Shown here: positions 8,106 to 64,000 of the stretch, one piece after another
Position numbering within the stretch: position 1 is the stretch's first letter
How the letters are laid out: each line of letters begins with the position of its first letter
Assembly (NCBI GenBank): GCA_963808625.1
Contig: CAWEHK010000004.1
Span: forward strand, 1 to 64,000
From: an uncultured delta proteobacterium
GTDB lineage: Bacteria; Desulfobacterota; Syntrophobacteria; Syntrophobacterales; Syntrophobacteraceae
Direction: 5' to 3'
DNA: 64,000 nucleotides
Position numbers and translations under genes: made by a program
Notes under the pieces: model-generated
The model's input: the letters and a program-made list of their open reading frames with translations, nothing else
Databases searched by the model: none
What the model was told of the DNA's origin: nothing

Positions 8106-8316
8106 GCCTCCCTACGCCCCTGAGCTCAATCCACAGGAGCACGTCTGGGATGAGCTTCGAGAAAAAGCGTTTCCAAACCGAGTTTTCAGTGATCTTGCCG
8201 GCGTCATCAGGCAGTTGGAATCCAGCTTGCCCCGGCTGAGTGCCGATAGTGAAACCATAAGAAGCCTGACTGCCTGGCCATGGATTATTAGTCTCAACTT
8301 GAACGCGAATTAGAAT
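8106..8316 (+). mobile_element. Partial (3' ~210 bp) copy of the 6270-7390 IS630
   Basis: Near-identical to 7180-7390 including the right IR, with a few substitutions. Confidence 0.9.
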
Positions 8317-8326
8317 AAGTCTTTTG

Positions 8327-11300
8327 TTATTCTATTGTTATGTTGGCGCACTTAGACCACCCGGACAGAGCCCCCTTGTCATCTTTCGCTTGCGCTTTGA
8401 CGCAGTAAGTGTTGGCCTTCACCCACTTATGAGCCGCGGAGGACTTCGGCCTCCAACTGCTTTTGACGCCATCACCCCAGTCGAAGCGGTACTGCAGGGA
8501 ATCACCATCGGGGTCGGTGGCCTTTACCGTGAACGTGTAAGACTTATTCACCTTGCCGTGGCTCGGACCTGCCGGCGGCTCAACCGACGGGCTACTGTTC
8601 ACTAGCACGTAATTCAGCTTAATGACCAAATCGCTTCCCTCAGGTCCTTGGATGGTAAGACTAACCGTGTAGATCCCAGTTTTTTCGTAGATGTGAACAG
8701 GATTCTTCTCGGTGCTTGTCGTTCCGTCCCCGAAATCCCAGAGCCAGTTCGTGGGATTGCCGACCGAGGCATCATGGAATTTCACCTTCAGGGGTGGTTT
8801 TCCCTTCACGTTGGATGCCGAAAAGTCGGCAACTGTTGCTGTTTGATTGGTTACAAAAGTTGAGAGGAAACTCTCTGCTCCAGCGTTATCGATGGCGCTA
8901 ATCGCAAACACGCGCACCGGATTTTCCCACGGATAGCTCGTAGCGTACTGGGTGGCAGAAGCCGCGACGGTTTTCACCATCTTTAGCAAAGGCTCTCCTT
9001 CTTTTCGAGTGTACACCCGGTAGCCCGCAGGCCCCGGCTCAGCAACCGGAGCCCACGTCAGTTTCGTTTTCTTCACACCACTTACAGTCATTGGCACCGC
9101 TTTCAAATTCTGCGGCCTGGGTGGGTGCTCCTGGATGTTGATCGGGCGCTTGGCCGCTGAATCCAGCTGGAAGGAAAAAGATACGGCTTGTCCCGGATAG
9201 AAAAGGGCCACCTTCGTCTCGTAGGTGATGCCCTCTCCAAGGAAGCTGAGAGTCACGAACACCTCCCCCACCGATTTGCCAGTCAAGGTAACCGCAAAGG
9301 CCCCATTGGAAGGGTTCACCAGCCTAATTCCACCACCGCTAGGATCGCGAATGATATCGCACGCCCCCGGACTGTCGTAAACTGTTTGATTGCCGTCATC
9401 GATGCCACATTTGGTCCCAGCAGGCTCGATGATAAGGGGCGCCGCTCGGCCGCGAATTGACATGCCGAGCACGGTCGGCGGCGGGCCTGCACCTTTCAGA
9501 GCGCGGCTTCCAGTGATAGTGGCAAATGTACGATCTCTATCCAGAAACTCTGCTATGGCAGGTGTTAACCGTCTAATGAGGGACTTATGCTGCCCTCGAT
9601 CTTTCGGCGGCATATTTAATTCATCAATGTGATCAATGTCTTCAAAGATGGCGCTTTCCTTCCACAGCACCGTTCCGTCCCCTGCCTCCTCTATTGCGGG
9701 TTCGCCGCTGGGCTCGCCGTCTTCATAGAGATTATTGTCTGTGCTCGGCTTAACCTTGATCTGTTTGATAGTTTTCTCTTTATTGGCACCGAATATCTTG
9801 GTTTTCACCTCCTCGTTGGGTCCGGGCTTGATCCGCTTTTTGTTTGGGTCTTTATTCAGCTTAATGAGCCAATCATTCCTAGTTTTATTATCATCGATTT
9901 TAGTGTTGCTGCCACTTAGGCAGTTATCGAAAGTAGGCATTAGCTGGTTCACGGAACTCACGAAGAGGTGAAAAAACCCTCTCGCCCGCTCCTTGCTAAT
10001 ACGCCACCAAATTGGGCCGTTATCCCAGACCCAGTAGAACATTTCCTGGCCGCCCATCAGTTCCATGTAGTTTAAGTCAGCTACTACGGAATAAAGATAA
10101 CGAGGAAAGGACTTAGCCTCCTCGTCAAGTGTCTTCGGATCGCCACCCTCCCAGAGATAGTACGCATTGAGAGATCCATGATTGGGGGTCCCGACCATAG
10201 CAAATTTGTCGATGTCATGGTTGAAATCTTCGCTCTGGATATAGCTCCTGACCAGGAGTCCCCCCATGCTGTGAGCTACAACATCCACCTTGTCCCAACC
10301 GGTGTACAGTCTTGCTTGATTGATCACAGGCACAAGATATTTCTGATACGTATCTTTTGTTTTTCCCAGGTACACCCTCCAGTCGTATGGGCAAGCGTAA
10401 ATTTCGTAACGGTCCTTCAGGGCATTCCACAGTGTGCTCCAACCTACTTCTTCATAATGAACTGGACCGAGGTCGATATCGTTGTAAAGTTTCAAGTCAT
10501 CTTGGGATGCTGGATATTGAGTCGGAAGTGTGGGATATGCGCCTATGTAACTCTTTACTGTGGTACCCATGAAACCAGGAACGAAAATAACCGGTCTCTT
10601 TTTGGAACGCACCAATAGGCTACCTGGCTGACTGGTCTCACCCTCACTTACTGTGACCCGATGTTTACTACTCTGCCGATCATTGTATGTGGCCCAGACG
10701 TTGTAACTGCCGGGCGGGACTTGGAGGAACTCAAAGACTCCATTGTCTCCCGACTGGGTGGTCTGGACGATATTATCGGAAAAGAGGTCGGACAGGTTAA
10801 CGGTTGCACCCTGGAGCAGCGCCACATTTTGGCCGGATGAGTCGTACACGTGACTTCTTATACTCCCGAAGACCTGCACGGGTGCTTCAACTGCGAAGTC
10901 GTTGCTGTCACCATAGATGGCGCCGGACTGGGCATGAATATGAGTAGCCTGCGAGGGTTCGTTGATGGCCACTTTGAACGTTTTCTCCCCATTAGCCAAG
11001 GTCACCTGGTTGGGGTTAATCAATCCGGCGGAACCCGACAAAGAGAGATAGACCTTGCCATTGAAGCTGGCGACAGAGTTTTTTGCATAATCCTCCGCTT
11101 GGATTCTTACCTGAAAGGCTACATTGACCTTTTGGTTGGGGAAGGTATGGTTTCCGTCCTTCGAGACTTTAAGATGATCCAATTCGCCAGTTACACCTTC
11201 GATCACATAGCTCACCTCGTTGCTCTTCCCTCCGGTGGCGTCATCAATGGCCCACCAGCTGTAGGTGCCGGGTTCCTTGTTCCACGGGGCGGTGTAGGTG

Positions 11301-51979: not shown

Positions 51980-52615
51980 TCACATGCCGGTGATGATTCT
52001 CCTGAACAGCTCAAGTTTCGAGTGTTTCCAATTCCACGCCCCGACTTTAGCGGCTTCTCCAATCTTTAGGCCAACGAAATCGCTCTTACCGGCGAGGTAG
52101 GCATGTACTTTGGTCTTATGCAGATGTCTCACCTCCTGCCCGCTGGCCTGGAGGCAGTCAACATACTGGTCAACACACACCAGAGTTACAGGATCTTCGA
52201 TGATCTCCAGACAGAGATCCTCCAGGGTGCCGGCACGCAGGCCTTTCTTGCCATCCGCATTCACGGCAAAACCAGGGAAAAGCATAAAAGCGACACGGGG
52301 TGCGCTGCCCGTAAACTCAAAAGGTTTGGCGGGAACAGGCAGTCCGGCGCTTTTAAAGGCACTGCCAACACTTTTAACGGCCGCCTCGGGATCTTGCTCA
52401 GCATCGCGCCCAATGACTATCGTCTCGACGTTTGCATAGCCTGATAAAAGGGGCAGTTGTTTCAAAAACAGGCGAAGTTTCTTGATTCCACCAAAGTCCA
52501 ACACTTGAATGCCGCTTGCTCCGAAGGCCTGGCAAGCCCAGATGTAAAAATAGTAGGCATCAGCACCTTCCACGAGCAGCAGCTTGGTTTCTTTGATCTC
52601 AATGGGAGGAGCCAC
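51980..52615 (-). CDS. DUF3226-like (TOPRIM-type) protein
   Basis: LLLVEGAD, DFGG, RDAE, GTLEDLC, KTKVHAYL. Confidence 0.75.
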   Translation of the reverse strand: MAPPIEIKETKLLLVEGADAYYFYIWACQAFGASGIQVLDFGGIKKLRLFLKQLPLLSGYANVETIVIGRDAEQDPEAAVKSVGSAFKSAGLPVPAKPFEFTGSAPRVAFMLFPGFAVNADGKKGLRAGTLEDLCLEIIEDPVTLVCVDQYVDCLQASGQEVRHLHKTKVHAYLAGKSDFVGLKIGEAAKVGAWNWKHSKLELFRRIITGM

Positions 52616-52617
52616 GA

Positions 52618-53694
52618 TCAGCGAACCTCCATGTTGGAATCGATTGCCGTTCTGAGCAATTCAAAGTCAAAACTTCTGGCAACTGTCTTGCCGTCAATCC
52701 TGTCGATGCGAATGTAGCTGAAGTCTTGCTCCATTTCCCCGGCAAAGCCCTTGTACGCAGACTGAAGACATTCATAACTGTGGGTGGTTCCAACGATCTG
52801 ACAATCGAATTCACGGGCCGCTCTGCCAATGCCTTCCCAAACTTTGGGCATAATCGAATAGTGGATGCCGTTTTCGCATTCATCGATGACTACAAGACCA
52901 TGGCTTGAGGTGGCCACTGCAAGAATAATCGAGAGCAAGCGGGAAACGCCTTCTCCCATGTATGTCACCGGGATCTTTCTGGTCAACCCGATGTCGCCAT
53001 GGATCATTGAAGTTTCGCCCATGGCAATTGTGGAAAGCCCCTTTAACTTGGGCTCAACTATCCGCAGGAACTCGACCACCTTTTCCTGCTTGCCGATAAG
53101 ATCCAACCTGCCAAAGCGTTCCGCGTCTTCGGACGGATTGACGGGTATTCTCGAAGCCAGGAACACCACATGCCTGGTGCTCATCTCAGCGTAGTCCACA
53201 TATAAGCCAATTCCTTCCGGACCCATCGAGAGATGAGACGACTGCTTTTTTCCTTTTTTACTTTCAATTGTAATATCCAGGGAGTAAGAGGGCCTGGGTT
53301 GCTGGTCTGTTCTGATCTGCAGAACCTTTTTCCCAGGTTTTGAGTTCCCCGCCGGAACAGCGGAGGGAATATAATTGGGGTTAAATCTTATCGTCATTTT
53401 TTCATTACTGTTGTCAACTGATGCTGCAATCGTAATTGGTTTGCTCATTTCATAATCATAGAAAACCGGGGCCCACATCGCATCCGCTTCAAAAGGGATA
53501 ACTCCAACACCCCGCCACGCAAGCTGCCGGAGGATCATCTGAGGATTCAGTCGGTCAAAGAACATGAACAAGGCTTCAAGAATTGACGTCTTCCCGACAT
53601 TATTGCGACCACCCAATAGGGTTACCCTTGAAAGATGCGGTAATTCAAGCTGTTCGAAACCCTTGAATCCCTGAATGCTCAGTTTAGTTATCAT
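52618..53694 (-). CDS. AAA_15/AAA_21 ABC-type ATPase
   Basis: IQGFKG, GRNNVGKTS, MGEG signature, VIDECENGIHY, TTHS. Confidence 0.9.
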   Translation of the reverse strand: MITKLSIQGFKGFEQLELPHLSRVTLLGGRNNVGKTSILEALFMFFDRLNPQMILRQLAWRGVGVIPFEADAMWAPVFYDYEMSKPITIAASVDNSNEKMTIRFNPNYIPSAVPAGNSKPGKKVLQIRTDQQPRPSYSLDITIESKKGKKQSSHLSMGPEGIGLYVDYAEMSTRHVVFLASRIPVNPSEDAERFGRLDLIGKQEKVVEFLRIVEPKLKGLSTIAMGETSMIHGDIGLTRKIPVTYMGEGVSRLLSIILAVATSSHGLVVIDECENGIHYSIMPKVWEGIGRAAREFDCQIVGTTHSYECLQSAYKGFAGEMEQDFSYIRIDRIDGKTVARSFDFELLRTAIDSNMEVR

Positions 53695-53880: not shown

Positions 53881-54049
53881 GCTACTGAAAGGTCCCACGA
53901 GGTATTATTTCCTGTATTTGTCAAATACCATGCCTGTTGTGCTTACTCAAGTTGATTAACGGATGAGGCATCAGTTGTTGGTTTTGAATGGCCTCTTTGC
54001 TATAGTTCATTTTTTCCTTTCTGTCTTCCATATCCCATAGGTGAACACC

Positions 54050-55340
54050 ATGACCAAAAGACGGCCACAAGCAACACTCATCTCCTGGGTTCTCTATGAT
54101 TTCGGAATGGCCTGGTTTTCCATGGTCATCATCACGGCCTACTTCATCCTCTATTTCAAGGAAGTAGTGGTTGGCGGCGACAAGGGGTACGGGGATTTCT
54201 TGTGGGGCATCGCGGTCTCGACGGCCATGCTGGTCTCGGTGGTGCTCTCACCGTTCCTGGGAGCCATGGCCGACATGCGACGCAATAAGAAGACCTTCCT
54301 GATCGCCGCTGCCGGGTTATCGATCATCAGCACGATCCTTCTCTACTTCACCGGGCCGAACCAGGTGTTCCCGGCAATGCTGCTGGTGGTCACCGGGTAT
54401 GCCGGCTACACCATCGCCATGACCTTTTACAATGCCTTCCTCCCCGAGATTGCCGGGACCGAATCCCTCGAGAAGATTTCCGGGATCGGCTGGGGCATCG
54501 GATACATCGGCGGCCTCACGGCACTTGTCTGCATGGCCTTCATGGCGCCGAGCGTTGCCGATGGGAAGCGCTGTTATCCTGCTCGCAGGGGCCATGTATG
54601 CGCTCTTTGCCCTGCCTTCTTTCATTCTGCTCAAAGATTCCCCCAGCACGGCCGACGCCGCGCCCGCTTCCATGGCTGACGGCTTTCGCCGTATCGTTGC
54701 AACATTCAAGGAAATTCGTTCGTACCGAACCGTCTTCGTGTTTCTCCTTGGATATTTCTTTGTTGCCGACGCCATGTCGACCATCATCGTTTTTTTCTCC
54801 TCGTATACCGTGGACACGCTTCACTTCAGCGTGCGGCAAAACGTCATGCTGCTCATGATCATCCAGCTTTCCGCGGCGGCCGGCGCCGTTGCTACGGGAT
54901 TTATCGCCAAACGGATCGGCGCCTTGCAGACGGTGATCCTGACGATCGTGGTGTGGATTGGGGCGCTCCTGGGGATCTTTGCGTTCTCGAGCACTTCCGC
55001 ATTCTATGTGATTTCCGTCTGCGCGGGGCTGGTTCTCGGCGGGACGCAGGCGACCGCGCGGAGCTTCATTGCCCGCGAATCGCCTGCGGATAAGCAGGGG
55101 GAGTTCTTTGGCTTCATGACCTTCGGCTCGAAGGTGGCCGCGATCTTCGGGCCGTTGCTCTACGGGGTCATCTCACAGCAGACGAATAACCCCCGCATCG
55201 CCATCGTCTCGCTTGAAGTTTTCTTTATCGCCGGGCTGCTCGTCATGCTCAGAGTACCCCGCGAGAGCGCCTCGATTAGAATCCACCGCAGAGACGCAGA
55301 GAGCGCAGAGAAAAACCAAGAATCAGCAGAGAACAACTAA
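54050..55340 (+). CDS. MFS transporter, UMF1/ATG22-like (frameshift near 54570)
   Basis: SWVLYD, SPFLGAMAD, FYNAFLP, GWGIGYIGG, EFFGF, IFGPLLYG. Confidence 0.85.
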
Positions 55341-55494
55341 AAATCATCGGTACGAACAACGGAGGGCGGGTTTTCTAACCCGCCACCGCGAGGAGCGCAG
55401 AGGATAACAAAGAATTCTCTCTGCGACCTCTGCGTCTCTGCGCTGAAATTATTGTCATCGACCACTGCATCAGACCGACCACCTCCGGCTACCG

Positions 55495-56722
55495 TCAGGC
55501 CAGCACGCGGGAAGCCTCGCGCATGAGTCTGGCGATGGCCAATCCCTGGGGGCAGGCTCGCTCGGCCTTCGCATAGTCCACTTCAGTCAGTCTTGCCCTG
55601 GCCTCCTCGGAAAGACCGGCAAAGACCTCCCGCGCCAGATCGCGGTCGCCGTAATCGCGGTAATACATGAGGCAGCGCATCACATCGCTCACCGGGACCG
55701 CTCCGCCTACGGCCGCCTGGCAGATGCGCCCGCAGCCGGCGCAATAACCCGAACAGGTCTCCCTGGCGAAACGGTCGAGGAGTTCGAGATCGCTGCGGCC
55801 CAGCTTCGTAAGGTCTCGGGCGGCGGCCACATTGGCCGAGAGGATGGTAAGACTGGGCATCTGGGAGCAGATGCATGGCGATGTTCGGGTTTTCCCACAC
55901 AGCCTTGAGCTTGGCCTGCTTGTCGGTGAAGCCGCGTTCGAGAAATCTTCCGGCGACTTGCAGTTCGGCCTCGCTGTCGGTCTTGACCGGTCCGCCGCCC
56001 TGGGTCTTCATCGCCACCAGGCCAATGCCGGAACCAACGCAGGCGGCCACCGCCTCCTTCATTTTCGGGGTGTCCATGAGGCGGAAATTGTAGGTAAACA
56101 TGATCGCATCGATCCAGTTCACCCTGGCCGCAGCCAGCAGGCAATCCTCCATGTTGGTATGGGTGCTGAACCCGAAGAACTTCATCTTGCCCGCCTTCTT
56201 CATTTGCGCCGCCCATTCCTTGATCGGCATCGTCGATCTCGTTCAAGGCGCTGATGCCATGGCAAAAGAAGAGGTCTACATAGTTCGTGTTCAGCTTCTT
56301 CAAGGATCGTCTCAAGGCTTTCGGTCATCTTCTGCGGGTGCACCGGGCCGGCTTTTCGTCACCAGGAAAATTTCCTTCCGGGCTTCGGGGTTGCGGGTGA
56401 AAAAGCGGCCCATGCCTTCTTCGCTCAGTCCGTTGCCGTAACCTTCAGCCGTATCCCAATAGGTCACTCCCCAATTGTAGGCCTGCCGGAGCAGCAACTG
56501 GTTGTTGACCGTATCGAACATCCCGCCCAATGACAGGATCGATACCTCGACCCCGGTTTTTCCCAATTTCCTCTTCGGTATGGATGGCGCTTTGCCCTCG
56601 CTGTCCGCCTGGGCGGCCACGGCCTTCGTCACCTCGAAGCTCGCTGTCGCCATCCCGCCAACCCCGACCGTCTTGATAAAGTCGCGGCGCGTCAACCCCT
56701 TTTGCTTTTCTCTCTCCGCCAT
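55495..56722 (-). CDS. Tat-signal aldo/keto reductase with C-terminal Fe-S motif (frameshifts)
   Basis: TRRDFIK, KRKLGKTG, WDTAEGY, AMKTQ, YCAGCGRIC, ACPQG. Confidence 0.85.
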
Positions 56723-56953
56723 ATGAACAACCTCCATAGGCCTGAATGCATTGCCATAAGGCTTCGTCCAAAAATAACCTGCTCTCATTTCGATCCTTTT
56801 TCAAACCACGAAGGACACGAAGAGCAGAAGAAATCACTTCCTGTCCTTCGTCATCTTCGTGCTCTTCGTGGTAAAAGAAGGGATCTTATTTTTGGACAAC
56901 TCCTGACTGTCCGAGTCTTATTTTCATCCTTTTGGGGGCCCCTAACGGGAACA

Positions 56954-58820: not shown

Positions 58821-59141
58821 GGTGCTCCTCTCCTTTGTGCTTGACGAAAAGGCAATCAGCGAACGCATGATGAGCCTTACCAACCAAGAGATCTTACCTT
58901 CCCGCGCCGCCTGGGGCAAGTATTCATGGTTTGAAACCCTTGCCGACGGCGTAAGCCTTGCCGAAATACGTGCTCATTCCATCGCGTGTTAAGCAGATGC
59001 CTAAAAACAAACCTTTTTTACCACGAAGAGCACGAAGAAAACGAAGGACTGGAAGTGATTGCTTCGTGCTCTTCGTGCCCTTCGTGGTCTGAAATAAGGT
59101 CAATGAGAGCAAGTTATTTTTGGACGGACCCCAAGGGACCG

Positions 59142-60624
59142 CTAGGTCGCGCGGGGTTTGGCGGAAGAGGCCATCACGCTGGTCAGAAATTCGGCGAAGA
59201 GGTCAGGATTGGCCTGCTTCATCAGCCTTCGGACGTCAATGGGGTCAATTTTCTTGACCAGTCTCAGGCTTTCCTCGTTCTCACAGAGGATGATCCCCCG
59301 GAAGAAAAGCATTGCCAGCTTTACGGGACTTGCTTCTTTCGTCAGAGATTTCTTGAGGGATGAATAGCTGTCCACCAGTTCCTTCAAGCCGTCGTGGAGG
59401 CGAACTACTTTGCGTTCGAAGAGACCGTTGATCCGCGCGTGACTGGGCAGCCACGCGGTGGCGAGGTCCGCATCAAACCCATAGCCAACGAGGAGATCAT
59501 CCCTCAGGTCTTTGAGTTCATCATCCTTCAGGTGCTGCCAGTCGATGGCAGCAGAATCGATCAGGCACCCTTCCCGGTAGCACTGTCTGGCAGTTTTCCC
59601 ATCACCACGCAGCCAGTAGGCATCTCCGAGATACCCGTAGAGTGCGGCGTTGTGGGGCGCTGTGGGGATGGCGGCCTGAAGGTGCGTTACCGCCTGCTCA
59701 TCTTGCCCTGCTCGCAGGAAGAGATATCCAACCGGGATTTCGCCGCCGATCAATGCAGCATCAACAAGGCCATGCTGCTCAATCTCCCCGAGCATCGTTT
59801 CAAAGAACGCCTTCTGCAGTTCCGATATCAGCCTGTCATTCCTCCTCATTCCATGAGCTTGAACAGTGTCTTCAACCTCATTCCAAAAGCGGCACAGATG
59901 CGGGATGCGCTCATCGACGTCGACCGGAGCCTCCCGCAATCCCTCCAATAGGAACTCGGCCAGCGCTAATTTTGGGGACGACATCGTGCCCCTTGGGATA
60001 GATTCGCTGGTGCTTTCGGAACAACTCGATGGCTGATTCCAACTTCAGGGCCTTGAGGGCCTGAAGTCCCTGATTGACCAGGATCATGTCGTTCTGGGAA
60101 AAGAGGGAAAGCTGCCTGGTTTGGCCCGGAGCAGGGGTTCCTGGGGCGTCGAGGGGATTTCCTTCTCCAGCAGTTTCGCTGGTGGCTGATTCTTCGGCAG
60201 GCTGTCGAAGAATGCTTCGGAGGAGGCCTTCGCCCATCCGGGTTATCGCGGCAGCCTTCTTCACGTTGCCAAGGTCCCGTGCCAGGCGGTTGAGGTGCTG
60301 AGCAAAAGCGAAGGTTACGGGAGCATCGACGCCACCCAGGGGAGTCGCGATAGTCTGTTTTCCGTGTTCCGGGCAGTTCACCACCGGGAGCTTCGCAAAC
60401 AGGTGGGTTTGCTTCTGACAAGTATCCAGATGTCGCCAGGTCTTCTCTTCCGTGTGATCGCAAACCGGGCAGGTGCGAGCGCAGAGCGGGCAGGCGAAGA
60501 GCTCAGCCTCCGTGTGTTCCAGGTACACGCTAACCCTGGCCGCGTCATCTTCGGCGACAACGGCTTTCACATACCACGGGGGAACAAGATTCAGCAGCCT
60601 CTGATAAAGCTCTCCAGCTTCCAT
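59142..60624 (-). CDS. Chimeric ISL3 Zn-finger/HTH + QLSLF + TPR-like protein (probable frameshift near 59975)
   Basis: CPLC...DHTEEKTWRHLDTC...CPEHG (zf-ISL3); no DDE domain; QLSLF at 60100-60114; TPR-like AALYGYLGDAYWLRGDGKTARQCYREG. Confidence 0.7.
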
Positions 60625-60824
60625 GTTTCGTTCCTCGATGACCTAAAATTGAAGTCAGCTCTTCCCAAAATCCATCGCACTGGAATCTCCATTTCTGAAG
60701 AATCCTTTGGTTTTTCATTTCGAAATTCGCAATCGCAATCTTACTAGAAAGTCCATTGCCCTGCACACGTGCCATTGAGGCCTCTCATGTCAAGAAGAAC
60801 TTGATGGGCACGACTGGCTGGGTC

Positions 60825-62168
60825 TCATCCGCTGGCGCAGCAAAGAATCTCGCGGAATTTTCTGGTCAAGGGGTAGACAAAGACTGCTTTAGTGGGCACT
60901 TGCTTTTTTTGCTTCTTGCCATAGAGGCTGTAACCATCGGTTGTTCCCAAGCGAATCCAGTTGGCAGCCTTGTAACAAGTCCCGGTGAATCGGTCGAGCT
61001 GCACGAATGTCTCCAGCAGGATTGGTCGGTAGTGGTATCGTTCTTCCCAGTCATGGGGCAGACGTCGAACGATGCCGCCCAGAATTCGCGAAGCCAGATT
61101 CGGGCACCTGATCCACGGAAGGATAAGAAATCTTGCGTTACTGACAACGTACCTCAGGTTCGCAATTCGCTGCTCGTCGTTCCAACCGATGAACCGATCG
61201 CGGCTCGACAGCCGCCATGCACTGGAGGCAAAACCCAGCACAGCGAGCAGGATACCGTTTGGAGACTTGTCCGAGTCAGGGAAGGCTCTAATCCCGTGGA
61301 AGAGTGGGTCCACGCCACAGACAGGCTTGTCGCGATCAGATGGGGCCCCGGTTTTCCGGGCTGCCGAGTTTTCCGGCACGGGTTGAGGATCTGGCTTTTT
61401 GCTGCCATAGACGAGATATCGCACCTGCGGGCCAAACAGTCGGCTGCTCTTGATGTAATGATGCTCGCGGATCATGGCATTCCAGAGCCGAATATCCTCT
61501 TGAGATCTGACCACTACAAACCGCAATGCTTCCGTGTCGTGAGGAGCCGGTTCCATCGTTTCCGGGGGTGCAGCGAGTGGCTTCCCGATACGCATGCGGT
61601 GTGCGCGTTTATTTTGCGGTAACGGCGGCAGGGTGATGAGGTTGTCCATGTCCATCCGCTTCAGGATGTCACAAACGGTTTCATATCTCATTTTCCCGTT
61701 TGGCTGGTACAGCTCGTACCTGGCGCATATCTCCCGGGCAAGCTTGGCTCTAGCGTTCTGAGGGTTCGAGGCAATAAGGTCTCTGATGGTTTGGATCTGT
61801 CTTGCGGAAAAATAGATGCCGATGTAGCGATGCTTCAGGTTGTCCCAATCGCTGTCGCTGCGGTCAGGAGAATGTTCAAGGAAAGCAAGGAGGCGCTCGA
61901 TGACAGCTTCTCTGGCTGTGGGGTCGCGGTCAGGCTTGGAAAAATAGGCCATGCCTTCTTTTGCGAAATGCTGCTGGCACTTGATAATAGATAGAGGCGG
62001 CACACGAACATCAAAAACCAGCCTGTCCACGCTTCGCCCTTCGAGAGTCCCGAGGATGATTTTCGCACGCTTTATTCTCCAGATCCCGGCCGTGGTGCTC
62101 CGGGCAATCTGTCGCAGCTCCTCTTCTTGCTCCTGCGAACACAAAATAGTAGGGATTCCGCTATCCAT
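60825..62168 (-). CDS. IS630-like HTH fused to DUF4338 (Druantia DruA-like) domain
   Basis: N-terminal EQEEELRQIARS...RAKIIL; then LWNAMIREHHYI, RYLV, AWRLSSRDRFIGW, RFLILPW, NLASRIL, LLETFV, GTCYKAANW. Confidence 0.8.
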   Translation of the reverse strand: MDSGIPTILCSQEQEEELRQIARSTTAGIWRIKRAKIILGTLEGRSVDRLVFDVRVPPLSIIKCQQHFAKEGMAYFSKPDRDPTAREAVIERLLAFLEHSPDRSDSDWDNLKHRYIGIYFSARQIQTIRDLIASNPQNARAKLAREICARYELYQPNGKMRYETVCDILKRMDMDNLITLPPLPQNKRAHRMRIGKPLAAPPETMEPAPHDTEALRFVVVRSQEDIRLWNAMIREHHYIKSSRLFGPQVRYLVYGSKKPDPQPVPENSAARKTGAPSDRDKPVCGVDPLFHGIRAFPDSDKSPNGILLAVLGFASSAWRLSSRDRFIGWNDEQRIANLRYVVSNARFLILPWIRCPNLASRILGGIVRRLPHDWEERYHYRPILLETFVQLDRFTGTCYKAANWIRLGTTDGYSLYGKKQKKQVPTKAVFVYPLTRKFREILCCASG

Positions 62169-62200
62169 TTCCTGTCCTGCCACTAATCCCGTGAAGATGT

Positions 62201-64000
62201 TCAATTCGGGACCTTGCGCCCGCATAGCTGGGCCATGGTAGCGAGATAAAGTCCTTTCCTTTGGCGATTGTTATATCTGAAGATGGTGTCAACCAGCCCC
62301 TGATGGAGTCTCCCGAAGGTTTGAGCATAGCGTTTGCTGACCCAGCGATAGTAATTTTCCATGCTCTTCATGTTTTGCGTAAACTGGATTCGGATAAGCT
62401 CGTCGATCAGTTCGTCCGCACGCTCATCGAAGAAATCCTCCAGCTTTGCGGGCGGCCCGCCGGGAGCCGGCTGATATTCCTGGACGAAGACGTAAGCCCC
62501 CGGTAGGGAACGCAAAAAGCGGAAGCGTTCGACGTCTTCGGCAAGGGTCGTGTCGAATCCATACATGCAGATGAACTCAACATTGTCTCGCCGGGTAAAA
62601 TCAAACATCTGATATTGTTGGTGCACTTCCTCCAGGTTGCGACTGTCATTCAAACTAAAATGCATCACGCGGCGGGTGAAACGAAGATTGCAACAATGGA
62701 TGCGTTTCAGCAGCCGGACTTTTTCCTCATCCACCAAACGGAGATCCAACGTTTGGGTGAAGTTGACCTGCAGGTTGCGCACCGCCATTTCTTCGAGGAA
62801 ATCTCCGGCTCTGGGGTGCGCCAGGATATTATCGTCCAGGAGGAGGAGCTTTCGTCTACCGTCCGGAAGCAGTTCATCAAGATCAGCGACCTGCCGCGGC
62901 CGGCCTTCTTTGATGGGGACGACACAAAAAGGGCAGTGAAAGGGGCAGCCTCGGGTGAGGAAACCCATGGCGCGATCGCCGAGCTCCGGATAGAGACTGT
63001 AGTCGGCAGGCAGCTTTTCTATTTCCGCTGGCAGACGCTTCTCAAGGTCGATCCCGGAACCGCCGACGATGAGCGAATCTCCATAGTACCTGCGCAAATT
63101 AACCATCCGGTTTTGCGTTACCGGGCGGGAAAAGACACCGCTCGCATAGACGGCTTCAACCCCTTTCATGAACGCTTCATGCCGCGCCAGAATCACACGC
63201 CGTCCCTGTTCTTTGAAATGGCGGCTGAGTTTCATCAAGCGCCAGATTCGGCAGCCGACTGTCCACATCCACGAGCAGGATGGCGCCTTGGGGTGCGCGT
63301 GCTGGATGCTTGTTTGGCCGCTCGGTATCGATGGGAAGCTGACAGGTCCTGGCGAGGAGCTCGCCGGGAAAACGGAGGCGGGATTGATCGTCTACCAGCT
63401 CACCACAAATTGCATTTCAGGGAACAGCTCATCCATCAGCCTGGCCCAGCGGGGAAAAAGCTCTTCGGTGCACATTTGGTCAGGGCGGTCGAACAGGATC
63501 AGACCGGGGATATCCAAGGGCTTGCTGTGCTTTGGGTAGGCGTCAAGCAGGTGGCGTGCGGCATCCAGGGCCGGCAGGACGGTGCGTTGCTGCCATGGAG
63601 CAAGGCTCAGCCACTGGCGCTTGAAATCGCATGCTTCTTCCATCCAGTTCGTGGTGTCGATGGCAAAATGTTCCTTGAGCACGCGCGAAAGACGTTCCAG
63701 CGTGTGCCTCGACCCCAGACGCTTATGCTTGGCCCCCCGGTAGTGGATCCGGGTGAGGAATGCCACCGGGTCGGTTAACGGCGACCCGTCAAGGAACAGG
63801 GACTGAAAGCGGGTGAGGCGAAAAAGGGGATTCGTGAAATCAAAATCATCGGTCCCATCATGGTGTTTTGGTTCCGGTCCATAGCCAAGCAAGAACAGCC
63901 ACGAATCACCGATGCCGGTTTTGGCTCTCCTGATGGGCATGTCATAAGGGAGAAAACGGTATTCTTCGCGGCGTAAATTCCTGACCAATCCTTTCTCGTC
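62201..64000 (-). CDS. Degenerate ABC-ATPase-like domain fused to radical SAM domain (5' end off window; frameshifts near 63400 and 63240)
   Basis: GLILFDRPD...FPEMQFVV; linker; ILLVDVDSRLPNLAL|MKLS; GGSG; DYSLY; TRGCPFHCPFC (CxxxCxxC); LLDDNIL. Confidence 0.75.

Follow-up and report, generated by a model that had tools for sequence, protein, structure and literature searches.

On the minus strand of a 64,000-nucleotide stretch of DNA from an uncultured delta proteobacterium of the Syntrophobacteraceae (the window), two overlapping ORFs, ORF1 (59911-60624, 237 aa) and ORF2 (59142-59984, 280 aa), join the beginning of an ISL3 transposase to a TPR-like region, with the pentapeptide QLSLF between them. 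Has a mobile element decayed at this locus, or has it been turned into a cellular gene, and if so, what might the product do? Domain searches placed Zn_ribbon_ISL3 (PF14690) at residues 43-87 of ORF1 with a match above the cut-off (E 4e-9), and the ISL3 transposase model NF033550 matched residues 33-148, covering model positions 2-117 of 370 only (the match ended at 117-119). The DDE core (PF01610) was found neither in the fusion gene nor elsewhere in the window's genome (G000), where the fusion gene was a single locus. These matches bore out the sequence-only reading, which had recognized about 140 aa of an ISL3 N-terminus without the DDE core. The features of the locus were as follows.

60325..60624, minus strand: ISL3-derived N-terminal zinc-ribbon module, residues 1-100 (PF14690, E 4e-9)
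60202..60324, minus strand: ISL3-derived helix-turn-helix region, residues 101-141 (NF033550 match up to residue 148)
60115..60201, minus strand: variable linker, predicted disordered, residues 142-170 (low pLDDT, dN/dS 0.73)
60100..60114, minus strand: QLSLF, putative sliding-clamp-binding motif, residues 171-175 (read from the sequence)
59974..60099, minus strand: first helices of a family-specific helical domain, residues 176-217, in the frame of ORF1 (alignment A1)
59967..59973, minus strand: one-base frame break (close relatives are continuous at this site)
59142..59966, minus strand: remainder of the all-helical domain, in the frame of ORF2, to the stop codon (identity of relatives, conservation ranks, stand-alone model)
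59544..59735, minus strand: two true TPR repeats, residues 297-360 of the fused relative P0002 (Pfam TPR hits, consensus TPR structures)

The zinc-ribbon ligands were C45, C48, C84, and H87, a WRHLDTC motif lay in the same module, and the start Met of the head corresponded to that of ISL3 transposases. For the HTH region the structure model predicted three helices (residues 105-151), and PF13542 (HTH) scored below its cut-off in P0006. The fused model of P0002 had pLDDT below 50 for residues 143-177, which cover the linker and the motif, and helices 177-191 and 195-208 opened the helical domain. The body had been described as TPR-like, which proved right for one segment: the two true repeats span only about 65 residues, and the rest is a family-specific all-helical fold. 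TPR hits were weak in the window (ORF2 residues 86-143, all below Pfam cut-offs); in P0002, TPR_1, TPR_2, and TPR_11 were at or above cut-off, and consensus TPR structures aligned with positions 297-359 (rmsd 0.8 over 60 columns to 2avp). The helical domain at 59142..59966 shared 47-74% identity with its 11 closest relatives, and column conservation ranks marked W, F, R, M, and F as conserved in the C-terminal helices. A stand-alone member of the family was modeled with a pLDDT of 91.7 and a pTM of 0.88. In fold searches, which barely covered the head, no Foldseek match reached E 0.001, and the highest VIA Z values were 8.0 and 8.3, all to generic helical repeats. No catalytic motif was recognized in the helical body, no solved relative of it was found beyond the TPR repeats, and the sequence search found no solved ISL3 transposase.

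The reading frame changed at 59967-59973. Since close relatives read through the junction in one frame (P0002, P0152-P0154, P0156, and P0157, at 60-90% identity), the window's copy carries one base too many. Frame changes were frequent in this assembly: 26 of 86 orthologue-like genes compared with same-genus regions were affected, two of them being the fusion gene, which left 24 of 84, including AlaRS and MreB, both full-length in a relative. In the reverse comparison 16 of 86 genes changed frame in the comparison genomes, so that these also carry errors and 24 of 84 is best read as an upper bound. For the site itself, each of 20 public runs contained less than half of the sequence words and none was of RNA; among the 32 contig pieces listed from four runs (183 more were unlisted), none bridged 59967-59973 and no indel was listed there, so that these pieces do not bear on the break. 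As judged from these sequence comparisons, the break is likely an assembly error, and could conceivably be a true lesion of this strain alone. The sequence-only reading had placed an indel near 59975 and had missed this probable origin. Downstream of the fusion gene, an MFS transporter and a TAT-signal aldo/keto reductase (window 54041-56788) were likewise split over several frames, as part of the assembly-wide indel load.

In relatives, the fusion was one protein of 480-570 aa, and ten genomes of several genera held open frames of 484-582 aa. By profile search, 38 of the 81 family genomes, spread over 8 of 16 genera, carried the gene, and each had it at one locus, split pieces and 3' fragments aside. 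C45, C48, C84, H87, Q171, and F175 were invariant in 40 of 40 intact non-redundant fused genes. Pooled over ten independent pairs, dN/dS was 0.28 for the ribbon, 0.32 for the HTH, 0.73 for the linker, 0.17 for the motif, and 0.26 for the helical part, and the distances of head and helical part correlated with each other (rho 0.88). The ISL3-derived head is under purifying selection (dN/dS about 0.3), and the fusion is real and old. Intact fusions in eight genera, selection on the head, and invariant zinc ligands upheld the proposal that the gene reflects domestication and not decay. The gene is nevertheless accessory and dispensable, because it was not found in 43 of 81 family genomes and had suffered deletions in others, with the head lost and motif and body kept in G466, and internal deletions in G464 and G480. 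Among 131 candidates of 577-2000 aa no longer fusion of the C-terminal part was found, which is weak evidence; 13 pattern matches on viral contigs yielded no confirmed relative, and plasmids gave no full-length match.

Representative and profile searches also recovered many proteins of 280-350 aa without the ISL3 head. From 137 rows, 12 were removed, of which 11 were TPR proteins of a generic kind and the last was a fused gene interrupted by a long insert. The remaining 125 family members comprised 102 stand-alone and 23 fused proteins. Searching for homologues with and without the zf-ISL3 part, as had been suggested from the sequence, returned both forms. In most stand-alone proteins the motif ended within the first ten residues (as in MQLDLF and MAEQLSLF). 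The pattern Qxx[LIVM]F was present in 110 of the 125 members and QL[SD]LF in 76; among the 71 members at less than 60% identity, the counts were 62 and 33. Of the other rows, six did not include this region, the motif was xxT[LI]F in seven, and two showed other deviations. The F, Q, and L of the motif were among the 15 most conserved columns of the family alignment. Stand-alone members with the degenerate xxT[LI]F (L029-L036, family f15) lay in a stable context of truA, bioY, the gene itself, and DUF488.

A quick tree of the TPR part, for which 14 loci were left out of the extraction, grouped 37 of 39 fused rows in one clade (SH-aLRT 99) nested among stand-alone forms. The divergent fused proteins P0021 and P0022 fell just outside this clade, so that a single origin of the fusion is not proven. 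The nesting of the fused clade among motif-bearing stand-alone forms indicates that a motif-bearing TPR protein captured a transposase head. By these sequence relationships, QLSLF derives from an older stand-alone TPR family and not from the transposase; the sequence-only reading had picked out the motif and missed this home, in which 102 of 125 members have no head. Stand-alone members occurred in other families and classes of the phylum, with 24 of 401 genomes matched, and group searches around G085 and G258 covered 2 and 13 genomes. Look-alike clusters in the Atlas extended to Spirochaetota, Myxococcota, and Bacteroidota, as leads only, and the metagenome loci were gathered with alignment A3 and are hence biased toward fused forms. 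Members share two TPR repeats with proteins annotated generically as "tetratricopeptide repeat protein" and were named either thus or as hypothetical proteins; no dedicated model for the stand-alone family existed in Pfam, NCBIfam, or PADLOC.

The captured head was compared with ISL3 transposases. Residues 1-141 aligned at 33-44% identity with proteins annotated as ISL3 transposases (44% for residues 1-107 of P0002); the alignment began at the first Met and stopped shortly before the catalytic core. The likeness to this family (NF033550; PF14690, PF13542, and PF01610; for example ISTfe1 and an enterobacterial ISL3) consisted of the CxxC...CxxH ribbon and the WRHLD motif. Unlike ISL3 elements, the fusion gene has neither a DDE core nor IRs, is present in one copy per genome, and is co-inherited with the TPR part. 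Seventeen heads were separated from five close ISL3 transposases by a branch with 98/94 support. The HTH of the head kept its basic residues and lost a Trp present in 4 of 5 aligned transposases, and the start of its third helix varied among relatives; the lost Trp and the variable helix start suggest low sequence specificity instead of IS-end recognition. The clamp-type motif of the fusion is internal and comes from another family, whereas the clamp motifs of transposases are mostly C-terminal according to the available text of PMC3971601, in which the transposase motifs listed in table S5 might be relevant to where this one came from. The fusion gene is not an ISL3 element.

Two explanations would still tie the locus to ISL3 transposition. 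One is that an ISL3 element inserted recently ahead of an unrelated TPR gene and is decaying, with the window's copy a pseudogene; this would fit the out-of-frame copy, the real deletions in some relatives, and a GCTCTTCC octamer found 32 nt upstream of the start codon. However, the octamer has the wrong orientation for a left end, the best match to an ISL3 IR on either flank was 13-14/22, the same as in random stretches (49 homologous upstream regions scored 12-15, with one at 17, and random controls 12-16), frame changes abound throughout the assembly, and intact, selected fusions span eight genera. The ISL3-insertion part of this account is already refuted by the intact selected fusions and by the lack of an IR above random, and the account as a whole is extremely improbable; the lack of an IR above background, a point that the sequence-only reading had raised for 60650-60750, also supports domestication. 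Alternatively, the protein might have lost catalysis but still bind ISL3 ends, and act at the clamp to repress or target ISL3 transposition. Its head indeed includes all of the transposase N-terminus and stops shortly before the DDE core, peptides from ISL3 transposases bind the clamp (PMC3971601, available text), and ISL3 elements were present in 29 of 81 family genomes. Against this, the ISL3 DDE domain occurred in 14 of 38 genomes with the gene versus 15 of 43 without it, and was not found in the window's own genome. Carriage of the gene is thus unlinked to ISL3 elements. This speaks against a regulator of ISL3 transposition, a role that had been offered from the sequence and that these counts do not support. 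Since the third helix also lacks the transposase Trp and varies among relatives, and 102 of 125 family members work without any head, we regard an ISL3 end-binder as very unlikely.

QLSLF agrees with the canonical clamp consensus QL[S/D]LF and with the revised form Q[LIVA]x[LM][FL], as given in the accessible parts of 10.1101/2025.08.20.671105, where the latter is quoted, and of PMC3971601. The revised consensus was present in 103 of 119 members having the region versus 24 of 4841 ORFs of this genome, the latter counted over their first 30 residues. QL[SD]LF was rare in this genome (7 of 4841 ORFs), and the six other ORFs encoded MutS, a Y-family polymerase, three IS91-type transposases (one of the three was scanned, and the other two share its C-terminus), and a DUF3780 protein. 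This last protein (L219:153-731, contig C49 of G000) carries QLSLF at its end and is another candidate clamp partner. In both the fused and the stand-alone models the motif lay in a low-confidence coil (residues 1-10 of the stand-alone protein averaged pLDDT 56), in agreement with the expectation that such a linear motif sits in a flexible segment (PMC3971601, available text). Conservation of QLSLF, named in the sequence-only reading as a point to examine, was borne out by the Q and F kept in every intact fused gene. The DnaN of this genome was intact and kept GHRL, PEY, and MPM, which we take to be its pocket residues. Based on consensus, conservation, predicted disorder, and the in-genome control, it is probable that the protein docks on DnaN through QLSLF. 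Known clamp partners (MutS, Y-family polymerases, IS91 transposases, Hda, RecB, and MuC) likewise carry the consensus pentapeptide in a predicted flexible segment. Unlike them, the fusion has no recognized enzyme domain, the carrier of the motif is a TPR/helical scaffold, and its binding is a prediction. The published literature, searched mostly outside subscription journals, yielded no TPR clamp partner and no fusion of this architecture.

Gene neighborhoods were read in 39 non-redundant fused loci, obtained by reducing 68 loci to 53 clusters at 95% identity, keeping 41 with at least 2 kb downstream, and removing two stand-alone ones; three of the 39 were cut before the head, and their fused state was inferred. 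The domain scan covered 136 of 194 downstream ORFs and 7 others. No fixed operon was found across the loci examined. Type I-C cas genes lay downstream on the same strand in 12 of the 39 loci and upstream in none of the 32 loci with at least 2 kb upstream, and in L056 and L083 cas3 started within about 60 nt of the fusion stop codon. Seven loci had restriction-modification or toxin-antitoxin genes downstream, and one of these also belonged to the cas set. The position of the gene at the head of type I-C cas operons and further defense cassettes in other genera had escaped the first description of the locus, which covered the window alone. The neighboring Cas3 proteins fell into at least seven groups (24-45% identity), and identity of the gene did not track identity of Cas3 (96% versus 34% for L083/L159). 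The last 130-200 bp of the gene were duplicated downstream at 89-95% identity, directly before cas3 or cas5, in G483 and G468.

L159:7569-7764 and 8205-8374: displaced 3'-end copies
L160:6719-6847: displaced 3'-end copy

These copies, together with the untracked Cas3 identity, fit a hot spot of cassette exchange anchored on the 3' end of the gene. Stand-alone loci, read over wider flanks, lay inside a cas operon in 1 of 16 cases: in G085, of another class, the stand-alone gene was flanked by cas3 and cas1 within a type I operon (L111:1558-12941) with the order WYL, cas6, large subunit, cas7, cas5, cas3, stand-alone gene, cas1, cas2, and cas4. In its sister genome G122 the stand-alone gene preceded an HTH-S24 repressor and an anti-phage-like HerA. 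No consistent repair partner emerged, UvrA, RecQ/DUF488, RadA, Smr, and TatD each appearing in one or few loci, and the upstream regions had no shared palindrome by eye. In 7 of 41 representative loci (L164, L163, L088, L159, L161, L162, and L166), which differ in their upstream contexts, TTGAC(A/G) preceded the start codon by 22 nt.

Two further explanations accept domestication and differ on function. In one, QLxLF is a structural N-cap or binds another protein, and the clamp is uninvolved. The motif does abut helix 1 with almost no spacer and at a fixed distance in most members, so that it could pack on the domain, and a pLDDT of 56 is ambiguous in this respect; one stand-alone lineage of seven members keeps LF or IF and not Q, two more members deviate, and the neighborhoods contain no consistent replication or repair gene. 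However, substitutions in the motif follow the published consensus, with a fixed Q, an aliphatic residue, a free position, L, and F; the motif lies in low-confidence coil in both models, and the strict motif marks known classes of clamp partners in this genome. A motif that does not serve the clamp is unlikely. The other explanation makes the protein an accessory of defense that either regulates cas operons and other defense cassettes, with its DNA-binding head, a TPR sensor, and clamp-coupled transcription like that of MuC, or steers Cas proteins to clamp-loaded DNA. It draws on the one-sided placement of cas genes behind the gene and on the restriction and toxin-antitoxin genes in the same position, on the divergence of the neighboring Cas3 groups, on the contexts of the stand-alone genes in G085 and G122, and on the precedent of MuC, in which a clamp motif can serve transcription (PMC12867686, available text). 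At the genome level, however, no link was seen, Cas3_HD occurring in 21 of 38 genomes with the gene versus 23 of 43 without; Cas3_HD was not found in the window's genome, the cas-linked genome loci came from three genera, none of them the window's, and stand-alone genes contributed the single case in G085. None of seven family members matched a PADLOC family, and a cassette-exchange hot spot would account for the 3'-end copies and the untracked Cas3 identity. A defense accessory is doubtful, if slightly less so than a motif unrelated to the clamp.

The explanation that we prefer, at a probability of roughly 0.47, is a clamp-docked, DNA-binding scaffold of 493 residues, in which an ISL3 head and a linker precede a QLSLF-bearing TPR body that would recruit a partner. 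QLSLF would plug into the pocket of the DnaN sliding clamp, the captured zinc-ribbon/HTH head would grip nearby DNA with low specificity, and the helical/TPR body would recruit a partner for replication-coupled genome maintenance and hand the DNA over to it. DNA binding by the captured head is reasonably likely; that the partner of the helical domain serves replication-coupled genome maintenance is the weakest step. Against the scaffold stand neighborhoods that name no repair partner, a fold that gives only generic TPR matches (best Z 8.0-8.3), and the dispensability of the gene. RRNPP-type HTH-TPR regulators, such as NprR and PlcR, similarly join a DNA-binding head to a TPR body. Unlike in these regulators, the head of the fusion is transposase-derived and a clamp-type motif stands between head and body; NprR appeared as a weak Foldseek row only (E 0.016, TM 0.16).

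The fusion is real and domesticated, and its base is a TPR family with a clamp-type motif that has no earlier description; members occur across several classes of one phylum and may extend to further phyla. In the accessible parts of the cited literature, clamp partners are enzymes, transposases, or a phage transcription activator. If the scaffold is true, a non-enzymatic TPR protein with an N-terminal clamp motif would represent a new route by which partners are brought to the replication fork. The locus also offers a clean case of bacterial transposase domestication: the stand-alone ancestor and the donor domain can both be seen, as can selection on the part that was captured and a secondary loss. 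Whatever its function, the gene marks a hot spot of defense cassettes in three genera and is useful for finding defense systems. A bolder view, for which we see only a slim chance, is that a widespread TPR adaptor family rides the clamp and that its Syntrophobacteraceae form links clamp-loaded replicating DNA to defense, for instance by directing Cas3, or the uptake of spacers by type I-C CRISPR, to invaders that are replicating; this view would explain why unrelated cas operons repeatedly arrive directly behind the gene.

Several other elements were observed around the locus. A REP-like palindrome of CTTCGTG units (window 59020-59088) gave more than 100 BLAST hits across the genome, and in L082 the fusion gene was preceded by a REP-associated tyrosine transposase. 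A candidate defense pair (window 51980-53694), some 5 kb downstream of the fusion, consisted of DUF3226 and an AAA ATPase that matched the AbiLi and PDC-M38A models at E about 3e-50. Upstream of the fusion, an apparent AAA-ATPase and radical SAM gene was present in three loci (window 62201-64000 and beyond, L053:10812-12932, and L071:4486-5877); it encoded 707 aa in G005, was split in the window, gave a weak PtuA-like hit in L071, and matched no curated family over the whole protein. The ORF between this radical SAM gene and the fusion (window 60825-62225, 466 aa) appeared IS-like; it carried DruA/DUF4338 at its C-terminus (PF14236, E 4e-36), and other parts of the genome gave five paralogous hits to it at about 30%.
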